Shown piece by piece: positions 5,883 to 56,240 of a DNA stretch of 64,000 nt. Position 1 is the first letter of the stretch, and each line of letters begins with the position of its first letter. A program made the translations under genes and the position numbers. The stretch is from Eledone cirrhosa. Its lineage: Eukaryota. The notes under the pieces are model-generated. The model had not been told where the DNA came from and made no database searches. It was given only the letters and a program-made list of their open reading frames with translations. The stretch is from contig OZ024753.1 in NCBI GenBank assembly GCA_964016885.1, forward strand, positions 6,634,001 to 6,698,000, given 5' to 3'.

Positions 5883-6414
5883 GCACCTATGCAAAGTAAA
5901 CAATTTACCACATTCTGAGAAGTGGTCTGAGCATAAGCCAGAGTCGGTGATAGAAAACGATCAGGTGAAGCTGCTATGTGATTTTAGGATACAGACGGAC
6001 AAGAAACTGGAACACAATAGGCCTGACCTGGTGGTTTTGGACAAAGAAAAAAAGATCGTGCCTGATTGTGGATGTGGCCTGCCCATTCGACACGAGAGTG
6101 CAAGAGAAGGAGAGGGAGAAAATTAACCGATATCAGGACTTAAAGTGGGAGGTAAAAAGGGTTTGGAACTGCCATGAAGTCAAAGTGGTCCCGATTGTCA
6201 TAGGCGCACTAGGTACTATCTCAAAAAATGTCCAGGGATGGTTAAAGATCATTGGCACCGCCACGCTTTTTGAAACGCTTCAAAAGGCATGCTTGCTGGG
6301 AACAGCAAGAACCCTCCGATACGTCCTGAATATCTGAGGCTGCAGGTAGTGGCTTGATGTTCATTTCAACAAACTTTCCAGTTAACTAACATCAATGACT
6401 GAGACTCAAAGAAC
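5881..6414 (+). mobile_element. 5'-truncated R4/Dong-clade non-LTR retrotransposon (RLE domain plus 3'UTR) in (TAA)n
   Basis: Translation WSEHKPESVIENDQVKLLCDFRIQTDKKLEHNRPDLVVLDK (frameshift in A-run) CLIVDVACPFD...KINRYQDL...PIVIGALG...LQKACLLGTARTLR is a restriction-like endonuclease. (AAT)n lies on both sides, the known Dong target. Confidence 0.9.
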
Positions 6415-7660: not shown

Positions 7661-8328
7661 TATAATAATATTATAATAATGGTGGATATATTATTAGGGA
7701 TTGACTCCCGTACTTTTTTGTTTTTTTACATATTTAAAACAACTGTGATATAATAATTCTTATTGCAAATGGGACATAAGGCATCGGCCATCCCTTAGGA
7801 AGTGAGATCCCATAATACCAAAGTATAATCAATGTGGTGTGTTAAACTGGCTTACCAATATATACAGTGAATTTATTTGCCCTAGGGGTCAGGAAGACTC
7901 TCGGTTAATATCAGAAACAATACTGAAGGAACAGGAAAACAATAATGATAATAATAATATTACATATAAACGACACCCTTTTTCTCTCTCTATATATATA
8001 ATATAAATTATATATATATTATATATATATATAATATATATATAATATAGATATATTATATATATATTATATATATAATATATATATATATTATATATAT
8101 AATATATATATATTATATATATAATATATATATATATTATATATATAATATATATATATATTATATATATATAATATATATATATTATATATATATATAT
8201 TATATATATATTATATATATATTGCTGATATTAATAAATGGAAACTATTTATAAAACCATATTTATTCTATTACATATATTTCAAGAGTAACCAAAACTT
8301 AAATTAAATATCCCTTTTGTTTATTATA

Positions 8329-11330: not shown

Positions 11331-11452
11331 ACTCCATTATTGGAAAGAGACGAATAAATGAGTGAACAGATGAAGTTGAATTATTTTATGTTTGGACAAT
11401 ATTAATGTTACAAAGGTTGAAGTGTGTTGAAGTAAAACACCGTCATTATATT

Positions 11453-12480
11453 AGTGGACCTTCGGGCGGTGGATTGGCAGTATCGGTAGAGAGTCGGACG
11501 CTATACTTTCCAGCATAGTTACGTCCCTTTACGATCTGAGTTCAAATCCCGCCGAGGTTAACTTTGCCTTTCATCCTTACGAGGTCGATAAAATAAAGTA
11601 CCAGTAATGCACTGGGATAATTGATGGCCTTGTGCCGAAAGTAGAAACAATTATATTAGTGGACCTTCGGGCGGTGGATTGGCAGTATCGGTAGAGAGTC
11701 GGACGCTATACTTTCCAGCATAGTTACGTCCCTTTACGATCTGAGTTCAAATCCCGCCGAGGTTAACTTTGCCTTTCATCCTTTCGGGGTCGATAAAATA
11801 AAGTACCAGTAATGTACTGGGTATTTGCTGGCCTTGTGCCGAAAGTAGAAACAATTATATTAGTGGACCTTCGGCCCTTGAGGCCAATAAATGAAATCAT
11901 TATATTACTGGACTTCAGGGCGGTGGATTGGCATTATCGGTGGAGCGTCGGACACCATAATTTGCAGCATAGAGTTACGGTCCTTTGTGGTATGAGTTCT
12001 AATCTCGCCGAGGTTAACTTTGCCTTTCCTCCTTACGGGGTCGATAAAATAAAGTACCAGTAATACACTGGGATAATTGCTGGCCTTGTTCCAAAAGTAG
12101 AAACAATTATATTACAGGACTTCGATCGGTGGACTTGCAGTATCAGTAGAGTTTGTGAAAACATACTTTGTGACATAGTTACGCTCAATTGTGTCCTGAG
12201 TTTAAAACCTGTCGATAAAATAAAGTACCAGTAATGCACTGGGATCGATTTAATCGATGTCCTCCACCCCACGCCACTCCAACCCCGTCGGTCGTTTTTG
12301 AAACGGGAATGTCGATTAATTCGACACCAGTTTGTTAATGGGGTTTATTTTATCGACCAAGCCAGGATAAAAGACAAAGGTAACATCAGCGGGATTTGAA
12401 CTCAGAATGTAAAGAAACCTAACTCTAAGCCACAAAGCATGTTCTCCGAGGCTCTACTAATAGTGCCAATCCACTGCTAT
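11453..12480 (+). mobile_element. Tandem SINE cluster (four + copies, one - copy at ~12300-12480)
   Basis: 11453-11655 and 11656-11860 are near-identical head-to-tail copies with A/B boxes; further diverged copies follow. Confidence 0.9.
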
Positions 12481-17220: not shown

Positions 17221-17744
17221 TAATGTCCTTCATACCTTCTAAAAATAACTGGCAATGGATCGTCAGAAACGCTACAGCAGAGGTTCTTAAACTTTTGGGG
17301 GCCACTGCACCCTTCCCGGCCACGTAATACCATCAATGCCCCCACCCCTATTTTAAGAGAGACTTGCCGACATGCAAATTGTAAATAATATATAATAACT
17401 TAAATCCTTAACTTATAAACAAGATGGTGTAGAACAAAACAAACGAGACAAAATAAAAACTCATTCACTGAAGAGGTCACAGAATGTGTGACGAAAGAGA
17501 TTTGACAATATATAAACAACCATCCAGTTACCAAACCAACCAACCGGAAATTTATAATAAATTGAAGTGAAAACAACAGGTGCGTGTGTTTTTATTGGTA
17601 GCATGACCCGCCGAAAATATAACAATAAATAATATAATATATACTACGTCTACATAAATATTATATATCTTTTATTTTATTATATTTATATATAATATGT
17701 ATCATTTGATATTTACAATGCTAGGTGCTTTTTCCGTGTCTTTT

Positions 17745-18435
17745 ACACGACCACTTCAAAGTGTGGACTGGGTGCTTTTTGTCGTGACACATACACGACC
17801 ACTTTACAGTGTGGACTGGGTGCTTTTGTCGTGACACCTACACGACCACTTTACAGTGTGGACTGGGTGCTTTTTGTCGTGACACCTACACGACCACTTT
17901 GCAGTGTGGACGGGTGATTTTTGTCGTGACACCTACACGACCACTTTGCAGTGTGGACGGGTGCTTTTTGTCGTGACACCTACACGACCACTTTGCAGTG
18001 TGGACGGGTGATTTTTGTCGTGACACCTACACGACCACTTTGCAGTGTGGACGGGTGATTTTTGTCGTGACACCTACACGACCACTTTACAGTGTGGGCT
18101 GGGTGCCTCTCGTCGTGACACATACACGACCTCTTTACAGTGTGGGTTGGATCTTTTTTGTCGTGATACCTACACGAACACTTTACAGTGTGGACTGGGT
18201 GATTTTTGTCGTGACACCTACACGACCACTTTACAGTGTAGGTTGGGTGCTTTTTGTCGTGATACCTACACGACCACTTTACAGTGTCGGCTGGGTGCTT
18301 TTTGTCGTGACACCTACACGACCACTTTACAGTGTAGGTTGGGTCTTTTTTGTCGTGATACCTACACGACCACTTTACAGTGTGGACTGGGTGCTTTTGT
18401 CGTGACACCTACACGACCACTTTACAGTGTGGGCT
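17745..18435. repeat. 48-bp minisatellite, ~14 copies
   Basis: Unit CACGACCACTTTACAGTGTGGACTGGGTGCTTTTTGTCGTGACACCTA with internal dyad CACGAC/GTCGTG. Confidence 0.95.
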
Positions 18436-18474
18436 GAATAATGTGCGCTATAATTTACATACTAATCATTATGT

Positions 18475-18905
18475 GGTTACCGGTTTGTCTTAGATGGTTT
18501 ACCGGTTTGTCTTAGATGGTTTACCGGTTTGTCTTAGATGGTTTACCGGTTTGTCTTAGATGGTTTACCGGTTTGTCTTAGATGGTTTACCGGTTTGTCT
18601 TAGATGGTTTACCGGTTTGTCTTAGATGGTTTACCGGTTTGTCTTAGATGGTTTACAGGTTTGTCTTAGATGGTTTACAGGTTTGTCTTAGATGGTTTAC
18701 AGGTTTGTCTTAGATGGTTTACAGGTTTGTCTTAGATGGTTTACAGGTTTGTCTTAGATGGTTTACCGGTTTGTCTTAAATGGTTTACCGGTTTGTCTTA
18801 AATGGTTTACCGGTTTGTCTTAAATGGTTTACCGGTTTGTCTTAGGTGGTTTACCGGTTTGTCTTAGGTGGTTTGCCGGTTTATCTTGGTGGTTTATCGG
18901 TTTGC
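18475..18905. repeat. 22-bp minisatellite, ~19 copies
   Basis: Unit CGGTTTGTCTTAGATGGTTTAC, with block-wise variants. Confidence 0.95.
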
Positions 18906-22421: not shown

Positions 22422-22599
22422 ATTCATACATAAACACACATACACACACATATATATATATATGCACATACAGCCCATTAAGTTGAGCACTCTACAGTTT
22501 CAGGATTACATAACTAATAAGCTCTGTAGCCTACATAGAGCACTCTCTTTTCCTGTACATTTCTGACGGAAATACTTCATTTATCTATATATAAGCAGA

Positions 22600-23035
22600 A
22601 GGGATATTCAATTTGTTGGTAATTCAACAAATATAAATGTTTATAACTGATTCAGAGCACTCAACAGTTTCAGGAGTATTATATACAATGATATTATATA
22701 AATGGAAACTATATTTATAAAACTATATTTATTCAATTATATATATTTAAAGGGTACCAAAACTTTGGTATGCTATCATCAGATAAAATACGAAGTGTGT
22801 ATTATAAATTTTGACATAACCAAGGAGAATATACCTTAACGGTTCAAGTTATCCCAGGTTATCAAGAGATAACTTGAACCGTTAAGGTATATTCTCCTTG
22901 GTTATGTCAACATTTATAATACACACTTCGTATTTTATCTGATGATAGCGTACCAAAGTGTTGGTACCCTTTAAATATATATAATTGAATAAATATGGTT
23001 TTATAAATATAGTTTCCATTTATTTAATACCATTG
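22600..23035. mobile_element. Palindromic (TA)n-associated element, family C, HHR with G12>T in both arms
   Basis: ~170-bp arms (22685-22854 / 22869-23035); each reads CTGATGA...GTACCAA/TTGGTAC...TAAAT-ATAT-ATA; homologous to 28360-28811. Confidence 0.75.
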
Positions 23036-45900: not shown

Positions 45901-46280
45901 TTATATATCTAGGGGCGGGTAAAATTCCCGAGATCGATGGACGAGTTCTCTCCAGCGGTCTCTGTCCCTCATTATCGCTGCCACGTCCCGCGTCTCCAAC
46001 AGTCTAGTGTCTGTCCTTAGGGCATCAACATGCGTTAACCTTGGTCTTCCTCTTCCAGTGTGTCCATGTAGGTCCTCCCACAGGATCACTGAGTGCAATG
46101 TCAACTCTGGATGTCGGTTAGTATGTCCAGCTAACCCCAGTCTCCCCTGTGTCACTTTTGCGCTGACTTTTGGGAGGCTCCCATACAGCTCTGAGTTTTT
46201 CATCCTCAGTGTATACTAATTAATGTTCAGAGCCATCCTCAGCATTCTCGTGTAGCACCCATCCACCATCTGAGTGAGTT
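45901..46280 (-). mobile_element. RTE-clade LINE 3' end
   Basis: RMLRMAL...RLGLAGHTNRH...GRGRPRLTHVDALRTD...MRDRDRWRELV is a typical RTE ORF C-terminus. Confidence 0.8.
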
Positions 46281-47921: not shown

Positions 47922-48902
47922 TACATACACGTGCATGATTATTTCCATACACATCTATCCATATATATTTATATATACATTTATAATGTCACATTCACAC
48001 ACAGTTATTTAGTCATTGTAAATGTGACTGAAATATCATTTCTGTTTTAAACGTTTACTGTTTGTATTTATGTTAATTCTAGTTAGATTTTCATTATCTC
48101 AAATATGATCATCAAAAGCTCATTCATAAACAATGCTAGTATATACCCACACATACATCTCTTTCTCTCTGTGTATGTATATATATATATATATATATAC
48201 ACATATATACATACATACACACACATATATACATATATATACATACACACACATATATATATATATATACATACACACACATATATATATATACATACAT
48301 ACACACACATATATATATATATATACATACATACACACACATATATAGACATACACACACATATATATACATACACACACATACATATATACATACACAT
48401 ACATATATATATATATACATACACATACATATATATATATACATACACATACATATATATATATACATACACATACATATATATATATACATACACATAC
48501 ATATATATATATACATACACATACATATATATATATACATACACATACATATATATATATACATACACATACATATATATATATACATACACATACATAT
48601 ATATATATACATACACATATATATATATATATACATACACATATATATATATATACATACACATATATATATACATACACATACATATATATATATACAT
48701 ACACATACATATATATATATACATACACATATATATATACATACACATATATATATACATACACATATATATATACATACACATATATATATACATACAC
48801 ATATATATATATACATACACATATATATATACATACACATACACATATATATATACATACACATATATATATACATATATATATATATATACATATATAT
48901 AT

Positions 48903-51900
48903 AATTAAGTTAAAGATGTACATCCATATATGTATACTGAAATACTAGTATGTATATGAATACACACACGTATACATATGTAGGTGTACCAAGTTTTTTC
49001 ACTGGTCACTTTACTGTGAGTGGCCAGCTATTCTGTATGTAAACACACAGACAAACCGGTTTTTAGAGTCATACTGGTTTTTGAGGAAACACCTCTCCTC
49101 TATTCTCCAGAAAGCCAGACAAGGAATATTGAACTAGTTTCGTTGTTGTTACAACTCATCAGCAATATTTACCTATCTTCCGGCCTCTCTAGAGAATCGT
49201 AAAAGCACATATCGTTATATGCTTTTTCTATGAAAATTAGTAGTGGGCAGACTAATTTGCATAGAGTGTGAGTAAGTACCGGTTCAACGGAGACGATAAA
49301 AACAAATAACGAAACGAAATTAAATTTCGTTTCGTTTGTAACTCACTTTTGTATGACTGACGCTTAAACAATTAAGTTAAAGATGTACATCCATATATGT
49401 ATACTGAAATACTAGTATGTATATGAATACACACACGTATACATATGTAGGTGTACCAAGTTTTTTCACTGGTCACTTTACTGTGAGTGGCCAGCTATTC
49501 TGTATGTAAACACACAGACAAACCGGTTTTTAGAGTCATACTGGTTTTTGAGGAAACACCTCTCCTCTATTCTCCAGAAAGCCAGACAAGGAATATTGAA
49601 CTAGTTTCGTTGTTGTTACAACTCATCAGCAATATTTACCTATCTTCCGGCCTCTCTAGAGAATCGTAAAAGCACATATCGTTATATGCTTTTTCTATGA
49701 AAATTAGTAGTGGGCAGACTAATTTGCATAGAGTGTGAGTAAGTACCGGTTCAACGGAGACGATAAAAACAAATAACGAAACGAAATTAAATTTCGTTTC
49801 GTTTGTAACTCACTTTTGTATGACTGACGCTTAAACAATTAAGTTAAAGATGTACATCCATATATGTATACTGAAATACTAGTATGTATATGAATACACA
49901 CACGTATACATATGTAGGTGAACCAAGTTTTTTCACTGGTCACTTTACTGTGAGTGGCCAGCTATTCTGTATGTAAACACACAGACAAACCGGTTTTTAG
50001 AGTCATACTGGTTTTTGAGGAAACACCTCTCCTCTATTCTCCAGAAAGCCAGACAAGGAATATTGAACTAGTTTCGTTGTTGTTACAACTCATCAGCAAT
50101 ATTTACCTATCTTCCGGCCTCTCTAGAGAATCGTAAAAGCACATATCGTTATATGCTTTTTCTATGAAAATTAGTAGTGGGCAGACTAATTTGCATAGAG
50201 TGTGAGTAAGTACCGGTTCAACGGAGACGATAAAAACAAATAACGAAACGAAATTAAATTTCGTTTCGTTTGTAACTCACTTTTGTATGACTGACGCTTA
50301 AACAATTAAGTTAAAGATGTACATCCATATATGTATACTGAAATACTAGTATGTATATGAATACACACACGTATACATATGTAGGTGTACCAAGTTTTTT
50401 CACTGGTCACTTTACTGTGAGTGGCCAGCTATTCTGTATGTAAACACACAGACAAACCGGTTTTTAGAGTCATACTGGTTTTTGAGGAAACACCTCTCCT
50501 CTATTCTCCAGAAAGCCAGACAAGGAATATTGAACTAGTTTCGTTGTTGTTACAACTCATCAGCAATGTTTACCTATCTTCCGGCCTCTCTAGAGAATCG
50601 TAAAAGCACATATCGTTATATGCTTTTTCTATGAAAATTAGTAGTGGGCAGACTAATTTGCATAGAGTGTGAGTAAGTACCGGTTCAACGGAGACGATAA
50701 AAACAAATAACGAAACGAAATTAAATTTCGTTTCGTTTGTAACTCACTTTTGTATGACTGACGCTTAAACAATTAAGTTAAAGATGTACATCCATATATG
50801 TATACTGAAATACTAGTATGTATATGAATACACACACGTATACATATGTAGGTGTACCAAGTTTTTTCACTGGTCACTTTACTGTGAGTGGCCAGCTATT
50901 CTGTATGTAAACACACAGACAAACCGGTTTTTAGAGTCATACTGGTTTTTGAGGAAACACCTCTCCTCTATTCTCCAGAAAGCCAGACAAGGAATATTGA
51001 ACTAGTTTCGTTGTTGTTACAACTCATCAGCAATATTTACCTATCTTCCGGCCTCTCTAGAGAATCGTAAAAGCACATATCGTTATATGCTTTTTCTATG
51101 AAAATTAGTAGTGGGCAGACTAATTTGCATAGAGTGTGAGTAAGTACCGGTTCAACGGAGACGATAAAAACAAATAACGAAACGAAATTAAATTTCGTTT
51201 CGTTTGTAACTCACTTTTGTATGACTGACGCTTAAACAATTAAGTTAAAGATGTACATCCATATATGTATACTGAAATACTAGTATGTATATGAATACAC
51301 ACACGTATACATATGTAGGTGTACCAAGTTTTTTCACTGGTCACTTTACTGTGAGTGGCCAGCTATTCTGTATGTAAACACACAGACAAACCGGTGCTTT
51401 TACGATTCTCTAGAGAGGCCGGAAGATAGGTAAATATTGCTGATGAGTTGTAACAACAACGAAACTAGTTCAATATTCCTTGTCTGGCTTTCTGGAGAAT
51501 AGAGGAGAGGTGTTTCCTCAAAAACCAGTATGACTCTAAAAACCGGTTTGTCTGTGTGTTTACATACAGAATAGCTGGCCACTCACAGTAAAGTGACCAG
51601 TGAAAAAACTTGGTACACCTACATATGTATACGTGTGTGTATTCATATACATACTAGTATTTCAGTATACATATATGGATGTACATCTTTAACTTAATTG
51701 TTTAAGCGTCAGTCATACAAAAGTGAGTTACAAACGAAACGAAATTTAATTTCGTTTCGTTATTTGTTTTTATCGTCTCCGTTGAACCGGTACTTACTCA
51801 CACTCTATGCAAATTAGTCTGCCCACTACTAATTTTCATAGAAAAAGCATATAACGATATGTGCTTTTACGATTCTCTAGAGAGGCCGGAAGATAGGTAA

Positions 51901-52237
51901 ATATTGCTGATGAGTTGTAACAACAACGAAACTAGTTCAATATTCCTTGTCTGGCTTTCTGGAGAATAGAGGAGAGGTGTTTCCTCAAAAACCAGTATGA
52001 CTCTAAAAACCGGTTTGTCTGTGTGTTTACATACAGAATAGCTGGCCACTCACAGTAAAGTGACCAGTGAAAAAACTTGGTACACCTACATATGTATACG
52101 TGTGTGTATTCATATACATACTAGTATTTCAGTATACATATATGGATGTACATCTTTAACTTAATTGTTTAAGCGTCAGTCATACAAAAGTGAGTTACAA
52201 ACGAAACGAAATTTAATTTCGTTTCGTTATTTGTTTT
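48903..52237 (-). mobile_element. 467-bp HHR tandem array 2: ~5.3 units (HHR on minus) then ~1.8 inverted units (HHR on plus)
   Basis: HHRs at 49126, 49593, 50060, 50527, 50994 (minus) and 51434, 51901 (plus). Inversion at 51394-51395 with GT microhomology; TA/CA-microsatellite flanks. Confidence 0.85.
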
Positions 52238-52257
52238 CATATATATATACATATACA

Positions 52258-52291
<34 letters not shown>

Positions 52292-52371
52292 CATACACAC
52301 ATATATATACATACACATACATATATATATATACATACACATATATATATACATATATATATACATATACA

Positions 52372-52405
<34 letters not shown>

Positions 52406-52972
52406 CATACACACATATATATCTATATATATATACATATATATATATATACATATACATATATATATACATACACACATATATATATATACATACACAC
52501 ATATATATATACATACACATATATATATATATACATACACATATATATATATATACATACACATATATATATACATACACACATATATATATATACATAC
52601 ACATATATATATATATACATACACTTATATATATATACATACACATATATATATATATACATACACTTATATATATATACATACACATATATATATATAC
52701 ATACACATATATATATATACATACACATATATATATACATACACACATATATATATATACATACACATATATGTATATATACATACACATATATGTATAT
52801 ATACATACACATATATGTATATATACATACACACATATATATATATACATACACACATATATATATATACATACACATATATATATATATATACACACAT
52901 ATATATATATATACATATATATATACACATATATATATATATACATATATATATACACATATATATATACAC

Positions 52973-53047
<75 letters not shown>

Positions 53048-53062
53048 CATATATATATACAC

Positions 53063-53097
<35 letters not shown>

Positions 53098-53114
53098 CAT
53101 ATATATATACACAC

Positions 53115-53207
<93 letters not shown>

Positions 53208-53210
53208 CAC

Positions 53211-53243
<33 letters not shown>

Positions 53244-53246
53244 CAC

Positions 53247-53279
<33 letters not shown>

Positions 53280-53335
53280 CATATATATACATATATATAT
53301 ATATATATATCATATATATATACATATATACATAT

Positions 53336-53375
<40 letters not shown>

Positions 53376-53394
53376 CATATATATACATATATAC

Positions 53395-53427
<33 letters not shown>

Positions 53428-53450
53428 CATATATATACATATATATATAC

Positions 53451-53481
<31 letters not shown>

Positions 53482-53492
53482 CATATATATAC

Positions 53493-53525
<33 letters not shown>

Positions 53526-53558
53526 CATATATATATATACACATATATATATATACAC

Positions 53559-53623
<65 letters not shown>

Positions 53624-53668
53624 CATATATATATATACATATATATATATATACATATATATATATAC

Positions 53669-53723
<55 letters not shown>

Positions 53724-53872
53724 TATATATACACATATATATATATACATATATATATATACATATATATATATACATATATATATATACATATATATAT
53801 ATACATATATATATACATATATATATATACATATATATATATACATATATATATATACATATATATATATAC

Positions 53873-53919
<47 letters not shown>

Positions 53920-54535
53920 CACACACATATATACATACACACATATATATATATACATCCATATATATATATATACACACACACTCATATACATATATAT
54001 ACACACACACACTCATATACATATATATACACACACACACTCATATACATACACATATATGTACACACACATACACATGTATATATAAATACACACACAC
54101 ATGTACATGTATATATATATATATATACACACACACACATACACAAATATACACACACGCACATGTATACACACAAATATGCACACACATGTACATATAT
54201 CTATTCACACACATACATATACACAAATATACACACATCTACATATATTATACACACACATACATATATTATACACACACGTACATACATACATATGTAT
54301 ATATACATACACATCAATATATATATACATATATTTGTAAGTATATATACAAATTTAATATAAACCTGAAGTAGATAAATGTAAATTATTCATGACAACA
54401 AAAAATTTGACGGAATATTTTCCATATAAATAATAGAATTTGAATAGAAAACTAAATAATTCTAAGAAATTCTGCGCATGATATTCCTAAGAACTTTTTC
54501 TCTCTCATGTATTAGTCTTCATTTTATATCAATAC

Positions 54536-55678: not shown

Positions 55679-56240
<562 letters not shown>

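Follow-up and report, generated by a model that had tools for sequence, protein, structure and literature searches.

Insertions of Penelope-like elements (PLEs) combine tandem copies with an inverted 5'-truncated copy, have a tail of 30-40 bp that is confined to one end, and show a bias towards (TA)n targets; the steps that make such arrays were called undefined, and the (TA)n-targeting clade, the Naiads, was reported to be without canonical hammerheads (PMC8557442). A circular RNA has already been published as the hypothetical template of retrozyme and PLE arrays (PMC4209133, PMC7229834). For retrozymes, the stated hypothesis is that a PLE enzyme copies such a circle into tandem cDNA (PMC7229834; bioRxiv 10.64898/2026.07.22.740005). 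Circles were also proposed as the templates of more-than-unit copies, with a palindromic stem III that permits cleavage in multimers or dimers but not in the monomeric circle (PMC4209133). A PLE protein was found to cut AT-rich DNA on both strands and to extend both, with two start sites internal to the RNA; its main in vitro substrate was unprocessed RNA, a multi-copy mRNA was proposed, and ribozyme mutants had no effect on insertion (PMC11167929). One of nine Xenopus retrozyme dimers was cleaved, and local tandem amplification was favoured (bioRxiv 10.64898/2026.07.22.740005).

The window, i.e. the whole 64-kb stretch of DNA analysed here, holds two tandem arrays of one 467-bp unit, Array 1 (30787-33108) and Array 2 (48903-52237). 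The units of the two arrays are ~99% identical, and the gap between the arrays, put at about 16 kb in the first-pass annotation, was measured as 15.8 kb. Each array consists of a long arm and a short arm in opposite orientations, arranged head-to-head with the 5' ends joined and the 3' ends pointing outward. Unit positions are numbered on the hammerhead-sense strand, starting at the base after the main outer end. The features are listed below.

29196-30786, no strand: Array 1 left TA tract, whose A-type interruptions give it a polarity opposite to that of the T-type tracts flanking it; a weak mirror of the right tract
30787-31048, minus strand: Array 1 short arm of 262 bp, spanning unit positions 206-467 and lacking a hammerhead
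31049-31089, no strand: Array 1 junction, six inserted T followed by a stub in which 12 bases are duplicated in tandem
31055-33108, plus strand: Array 1 long arm, 4.4 units with four hammerhead copies, outer end at unit position 467
33109-33767, no strand: Array 1 right TA tract, with T-type interruptions
48174-48902, no strand: Array 2 left target tract, (TA)n with C interruptions on the plus strand
48903-51395, minus strand: Array 2 long arm of 5.3 units, its hammerheads in sense on the minus strand; the outer (3') end falls at unit position 393 (putative second initiation site) and the inner end at 236
51394-51395, no strand: Array 2 head-to-head junction, a 2-base GT overlap common to both arms
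51394-52237, plus strand: Array 2 short arm, 1.8 units long; its inner end falls at unit position 88 and its outer (3') end at 464 (putative main initiation site)
51422-51493, plus strand: type I hammerhead motif, one of 11 copies, matching Rfam HH9, core from 51440, predicted cut after GUU at 51470
51733-51761, plus strand: strong hairpin directly upstream of the main 3' end, within a 'tail' of ~70 bases
52238-54333, no strand: Array 2 right target tract, of the same polarity as the left tract

Three of the four outer arm ends lie at unit positions 464-467, just past the strong hairpin, and the fourth at 393; the ~70-base tail with its hairpin is absent from this last end, that of the Array 2 long arm. 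The inner ends lie at unit positions 88, 206, 236 and 296, none of the four (a small number) being at the predicted cut site at 165. A target-site duplication (>4 bp) is unreadable in both arrays because all four outer ends sit inside TA tracts. The flanks of Array 2 are of one polarity on both sides, as expected for an insertion into a single pre-existing tract.

The unit has a GC content of 0.35-0.36 and a period of 467 bp, and it is non-coding, with no stop-to-stop frame of at least 90 codons within the arrays. The sense strand of the monomer folds with a z score of -9.0 relative to shuffled sequences, none of 100 shuffles being as good. Its hammerhead motif has a 7-bp stem I, a 5-bp stem II and a 2-bp palindromic stem III, with a predicted cut after GUU between unit positions 164 and 165. 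The Rfam model Hammerhead_HH9 (RF02275, clan CL00010) matches it over the full length with E 4.5e-8 and 37.7 bits against a gathering score of 52; at gathering scores Rfam gives zero matches in the whole window, and the hammerhead is visible by E-value only. The other 28 sub-threshold Rfam matches in the window were discarded as hairpin look-alikes. A custom hammerhead motif scan gave 13 matches in the window, 10 of them within the arrays, and none in 100 locally shuffled windows. The full stem test is passed by 10 of the 11 array copies, the eleventh having a private stem I change at 50568.

The common state of the family was derived by aligning contigs of three public runs, X1, X4 and X5, to one unit, including 1016 contigs of X1, the deepest of the three, and one contig of X4. 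The X4 contig carries a compensatory pair of changes in stem II (51448/51459) together with GUC at the cut site, and all three changes also occur in X1. This single compensatory event, which is not a covariation analysis, points to a conserved hammerhead structure. A GUU triplet is weaker than GUC in hammerheads.

The arrangement is tandem and inverted, with no terminal repeats around an internal part and hence no LTR structure. The long arms hold 4.4 and 5.3 tandem units, and a type I hammerhead is present in at least two consecutive units (11 cut-site contexts). From these sequence features we classify the 467-bp unit as a non-LTR retrozyme, likely to be mobilised by a Penelope-like element. 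No reverse transcriptase (RT) or GIY-YIG frame was found in the arrays, and none of 11 non-repetitive frames (of 156) elsewhere in the window has a Pfam match; the enzyme would therefore be supplied from elsewhere in the genome. An autonomous Penelope-like element was rejected, there being no frame with RT and GIY-YIG. Pattern scans for the motif of the hammerhead region found 0 loci in metagenome contigs and 0 in viral contigs. With 51471-52237 as the query, part of the unit is present in 20 public runs from 17 studies, with 16 coded organism labels and one wastewater metagenome (three runs, X1, X4 and X5, being those aligned); no RNA run is among those listed, which counts neither for nor against expression. 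About 1% of the raw reads of another run, X21, gave no aligned read, a sample that carries no weight. The spread across the 16 labels may reflect close kin, diet or contamination, or horizontal spread.

Several other repeats were observed in the window. A fold-back element at 28358-28808 lies in the same TA tract as Array 1; its arms are 95% alike around a short spacer, each arm has a hammerhead motif (cores at 28545, minus, and 28723, plus), and ~100 extra bases are present at one end only. An older copy of the same shape lies at 22587-23026 (70%), with a fragment at 8229-8306. Between TA tracts at 27762-28031 there is an insertion, single-copy in the window, with a hammerhead motif (core 27940, plus strand) that has an 8-bp stem I and a palindromic stem III. 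An inverted pair at 33768-34115, 98% alike with a short TA spacer, lies within the right tract of Array 1 and has kin near 17510-17640 and 38320-38352; the custom motif scan found no hammerhead in it. Several families of hammerhead-bearing insertions seem to have used the tract at 27.6-34.7 kb as a landing site. The other tandem repeats are 48 bp x 14.6 (17744-18436), 22 bp x 19.5 with 97% matches (18477-18904) and 205 bp x 2.1 (11445-11874). Three short frames (5969-6337, 45901-46215 and 55686-56003), which we take to resemble C-terminal pieces of non-LTR retrotransposon proteins, gave no Pfam match.

Three substitutions sort the units by array with zero exceptions.

51507, plus strand: unit position 201, G in 7/7 Array 2 copies and A in 4/4 Array 1 copies; common state A
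51593, plus strand: unit position 287, G in 8/8 Array 2 copies (the common state) and A in 5/5 Array 1 copies
51618, plus strand: unit position 312, C in 8/8 Array 2 copies and T in all Array 1 copies (five and the duplicated stub); common state T

Taken one by one, the three sites would sort perfectly by array by chance with probabilities of 1/330, 1/1287 and 1/3003, values that are not to be multiplied as the sites are linked. Pairwise differences among the nine full units number 0-2 within an array and 3-5 between arrays. The first-pass annotation had given three array-specific motifs for each array and described the variants as common to both inverted arms. The motifs are indeed specific: GTAGATGTACC (6 copies) and GGTCATTTTAC (5 copies) occur in both arms of Array 1 and never in Array 2, and GTAGGTG(T/A)ACC (8 copies), GGTCACTTTAC (8) and CACCTCTCCTC (7) occur in both arms of Array 2 and never in Array 1. 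The four copies of CACCTTTCCTC are likewise confined to Array 1, but only to its long arm, because the short arm stops short of that site. Sharing between arms therefore stands for Array 2, whose short arm spans each of the three sites twice, and in Array 1 for two of the three sites, 287 and 312 being the only ones spanned by its 262-bp short arm.

Private changes are isolated, as the first-pass annotation had noted: those it had placed at 49921 and about 50567 in Array 2 lie at 49921 and 50568, and we add one substitution in Array 1 (31429) and several indels in Array 1 within 90 bp of the inner junction, i.e. a 2-base insertion near 31134, the 12-base duplication (31066-31089) and the six inserted T (31049-31054). 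Neither array contains mosaic units. The description of the insertions as recent has only the count of three private substitutions in ~5.65 kb as its basis.

All three runs have the same common state, 201A, 287G and 312T. In X1 the Array 2 alleles 201G and 312C account for ~0.4% and ~1.3% of contig depth, which is not an allele frequency and comes from a run whose organism may differ from the window's species; both are absent from the contigs of X4 and X5. The Array 1 allele 287A is below the 2% listing threshold in all three runs. The arrays thus depart from the common type by one rare change in Array 1 and by two others in Array 2, and neither array descends from the other because each is altered at its own sites. 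The presence of a rare allele in every unit implies a bottleneck of one unit followed by multiplication. It is well supported that each array descends from one founder unit, and the earlier proposal of one founder template per array has gained a stronger footing than the sequence alone had given it, since the array-fixed alleles are rare in the family. A single haplotype per array is not proof of a single molecule, as one active source locus may dominate the RNA pool and supply both arms.

The proposal of two independent insertions is also supported: the junctions, ends and flanking tract types differ, the arrays share no unique flank beside them, and their alleles were derived separately. It is scarcely credible that one insertion was segmentally duplicated with its surroundings and then homogenised separately, and we reject this in spite of the 99% identity of the units only 15.8 kb apart, as the junctions, arm lengths, ends and flanking tract types all differ, each array departs from the common state at its own sites, and with the arrays masked a comparison of 20001-41000 with 41001-64000 gave six BLAST matches, none adjoining an array.

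The X4 contig is a closed cycle of 497 bases (467 + 30) without flank, over window positions 51394-51860; both a circular RNA and a tandem array would assemble in this way. Five of the nine listed substitution sites (51507, 51669, 51675, 51802 and 51813) are A/G on the sense strand, and the RNA is highly paired. Editing of the template RNA is a possible source of these changes, the sites being too few for statistics.

The template of the arrays was continuous. The predicted cut site is crossed 11 times, each time intact over 30 bases, and three of the four arms, of 844, 2054 and 2493 bases, exceed the 303 bases that could at most be copied from a cleaved linear monomer (cut at 165, primed at 467). 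These lengths and intact crossings, together with the lack of mosaic units, imply a continuous template, whether circle, uncut multimer or DNA. The same crossings and the lack of mosaics speak against jumps between separate linear monomers. Among the loose ends listed for X1, TA-joined ones lie at 51773 (unit position 467, 12 contigs) and 51704 (position 398, 4 contigs), 30 further loose ends falling outside the listing, and with the arm ends in the window they indicate two recurring TA-joined 3' end sites ~70 bases apart.

On balance we lean towards reading each array, from its sequence, as a head-to-head retrozyme insertion into a TA microsatellite, for which a Penelope-like RT would have copied one circular RNA for several rounds. 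A donor array would be transcribed as a multimer, in which adjacent hammerheads would pair through the palindromic stem III and release 467-base monomers. A host ligase would circularise the monomers, and a monomeric circle, having no partner ribozyme, would be stable. A Penelope-type endonuclease would then cut both strands of the TA tract, each 3' end priming reverse transcription internally at a U-rich site (unit positions 464-467 or 393-398). The RT would travel 1.8 to 5.3 rounds, and the two cDNA ends would be joined at the 2-base overlap in Array 2 or through an untidy patch in Array 1. Array 2 is the clean case for this copying model. We hold it possible, more tentatively, that each array is the record of one RNA circle, with both TA strands primed on the same molecule and its changes copied into every unit of both arms. 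The rolling-circle reverse transcription of a single circular RNA suggested by the first-pass annotation is the most likely route, but a linear multimer, a dominant source locus or DNA amplification could give the same pattern. These considerations about the copying route draw on two arrays only.

An alternative hypothesis, which we find unlikely, could be that the same Penelope-type enzyme copied an uncleaved linear multimer from an already uniform donor array, with one RNA or several RNAs of the same locus serving both target ends. Such a multimer would also be crossed unbroken at the cut site, and the GUU triplet and 2-bp stem III of the unit may slow its cleavage. Unprocessed RNA was the dominant substrate of the PLE protein and ribozyme mutants were neutral for insertion (PMC11167929), and eight of the nine Xenopus dimers were uncleaved (bioRxiv 10.64898/2026.07.22.740005). 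In our assessment the unprocessed-RNA result, the cleavage of one dimer in nine and the GUU triplet would all count against the circle model. The bottleneck would merely be shifted one generation back, as the donor would still have had to become uniform for a rare allele, and Array 2 would need at least seven units of uncut template if its arms came from non-overlapping parts. The hammerhead seems to have been kept under selection, to judge from the compensatory pair and the GUC in X4, and the lack of inner ends at the cut site (0/4, a small number) argues weakly against a partly cleaved linear RNA.

A DNA-level origin is best considered with the flank of Array 1. The TA tract on its left has 46 A-type and no T-type marks in 29200-30799 (~1.6 kb) and is flanked by T-type tracts. 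Read outward, both Array 1 tracts open with blocks of 20 and 23 bases, and the agreement of their block patterns is equalled by 0 of 500 local shuffles and 1 of 500 anchored shuffles, the corresponding numbers for four control tracts being 52-500 of 500. A second mirror score is marginal (49/1000 shuffles), and the two scores thus differ in strength. In their first 400 bp the left tract has 15 irregular bases and the right tract has none. Given this inversion and the weak mirroring of the right tract, the Array 1 short arm and the left tract may together have been copied, in inverted form and as DNA, from the end of the long arm and the right tract. Possible alternatives are that the element landed at the centre of a TA palindrome or that there is a local assembly fault at the noisy left tract. 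If the short arm is a DNA copy, the sharing of alleles between the arms of Array 1 is uninformative about RNA. The both-arms argument rests on Array 2.

The inverted left tract, 1.6 kb long and resembling the right one, shows that an inverted duplication may have occurred, and one could accordingly ask if a short insertion was amplified or homogenised wholly at the DNA level, by unequal exchange, slippage, gene conversion, break repair in the fragile TA tract or a rolling small DNA circle. A satellite growing locally would then have left the fixed variants as founder effects, and the authors of bioRxiv 10.64898/2026.07.22.740005 prefer local amplification in their discussion. We judge this improbable. 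The two arms of Array 2 are both longer than one unit, have different outer ends and lie between unmirrored flanks, and yet they share the rare alleles, so that conversion across the inversion would be needed. None of the private changes has spread to a neighbouring unit, and the outer ends lie at recurring sites also seen in another run, as RT priming predicts.

The arrays could also be artefacts of assembly or library preparation, with polishing making the units uniform and fold-back chimeras making the inverted arms. The irregular bases of the Array 1 left tract (15 against 0) may be noisy sequence, and no strand-change joint at 51394, the Array 2 junction, is listed in X1, X4 or X5. We regard such an origin as very unlikely, as polishing would favour the common allele rather than fix different rare alleles in each array, the private changes of single units are retained, neither junction is a mirror point, both end sites and the rare alleles of Array 2 recur in X1, and three further inverted elements lie in or beside TA tracts of the window.

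Elements of this kind are known already, and the rolling-circle model is in print. Where rare alleles are fixed throughout an array, across both of its separately primed arms, they form a signature countable in any long-read host assembly, one that separates circles from linear multimers and local amplification. Literature searches limited to open-licence papers listed none that uses array-fixed rare alleles as such a test. The family is young and apparently abundant, which makes the rolling-circle hypothesis countable in one assembly, a question that two arrays cannot settle. If the one-circle reading is true, a young, high-copy family of this sort would prove rolling-circle retrotransposition in animals at genome scale for the first time, and it would be a read-out of the variants of single RNAs, by transcription error or editing, fixed into the germ line.

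In comparison with the known systems, the unit resembles the metazoan non-LTR retrozymes in being a non-coding low-GC tandem repeat with a type I hammerhead per unit (PMC7229834; bioRxiv 10.64898/2026.07.22.740005). Its 467-bp monomer is slightly above the 150-450 bp range of PMC7229834 and inside the 51-972 bp of bioRxiv 10.64898/2026.07.22.740005. Its 2-bp palindromic stem III is of the kind active in dimers (PMC4209133). Relative to Rfam HH9 the hammerhead has the same core and topology but a shorter stem III, a GUU triplet and a score under gathering. Head-to-head arms, TA targeting and array-fixed rare alleles are seen here, and none of them is described for retrozymes in the parts of PMC7229834 and bioRxiv 10.64898/2026.07.22.740005 available to us.

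The L1 twin-priming inversions are similar in their opposed cDNA arms primed from both target ends and in a joint with 1-2 bases of overlap, but the arrays differ from them in having no poly(A) tail, tandem copies of more than one unit, internal initiation and a microsatellite target. Apart from the length of the tail, the agreement with endonuclease-bearing Penelope-like elements is good: both arrays have tandem copies and an inverted 5'-truncated copy joined at the 5' end, and further similarities are an apparent tail at one end only, the (TA)n bias and a hammerhead in the repeat (PMC8557442); putative internal initiation at two sites would match the PLE mechanism (PMC11167929). They differ from autonomous Penelope-like elements in the lack of an RT or GIY-YIG frame, and their tail is ~70 bases long as compared with 30-40 bp in Penelope-like elements (PMC8557442).
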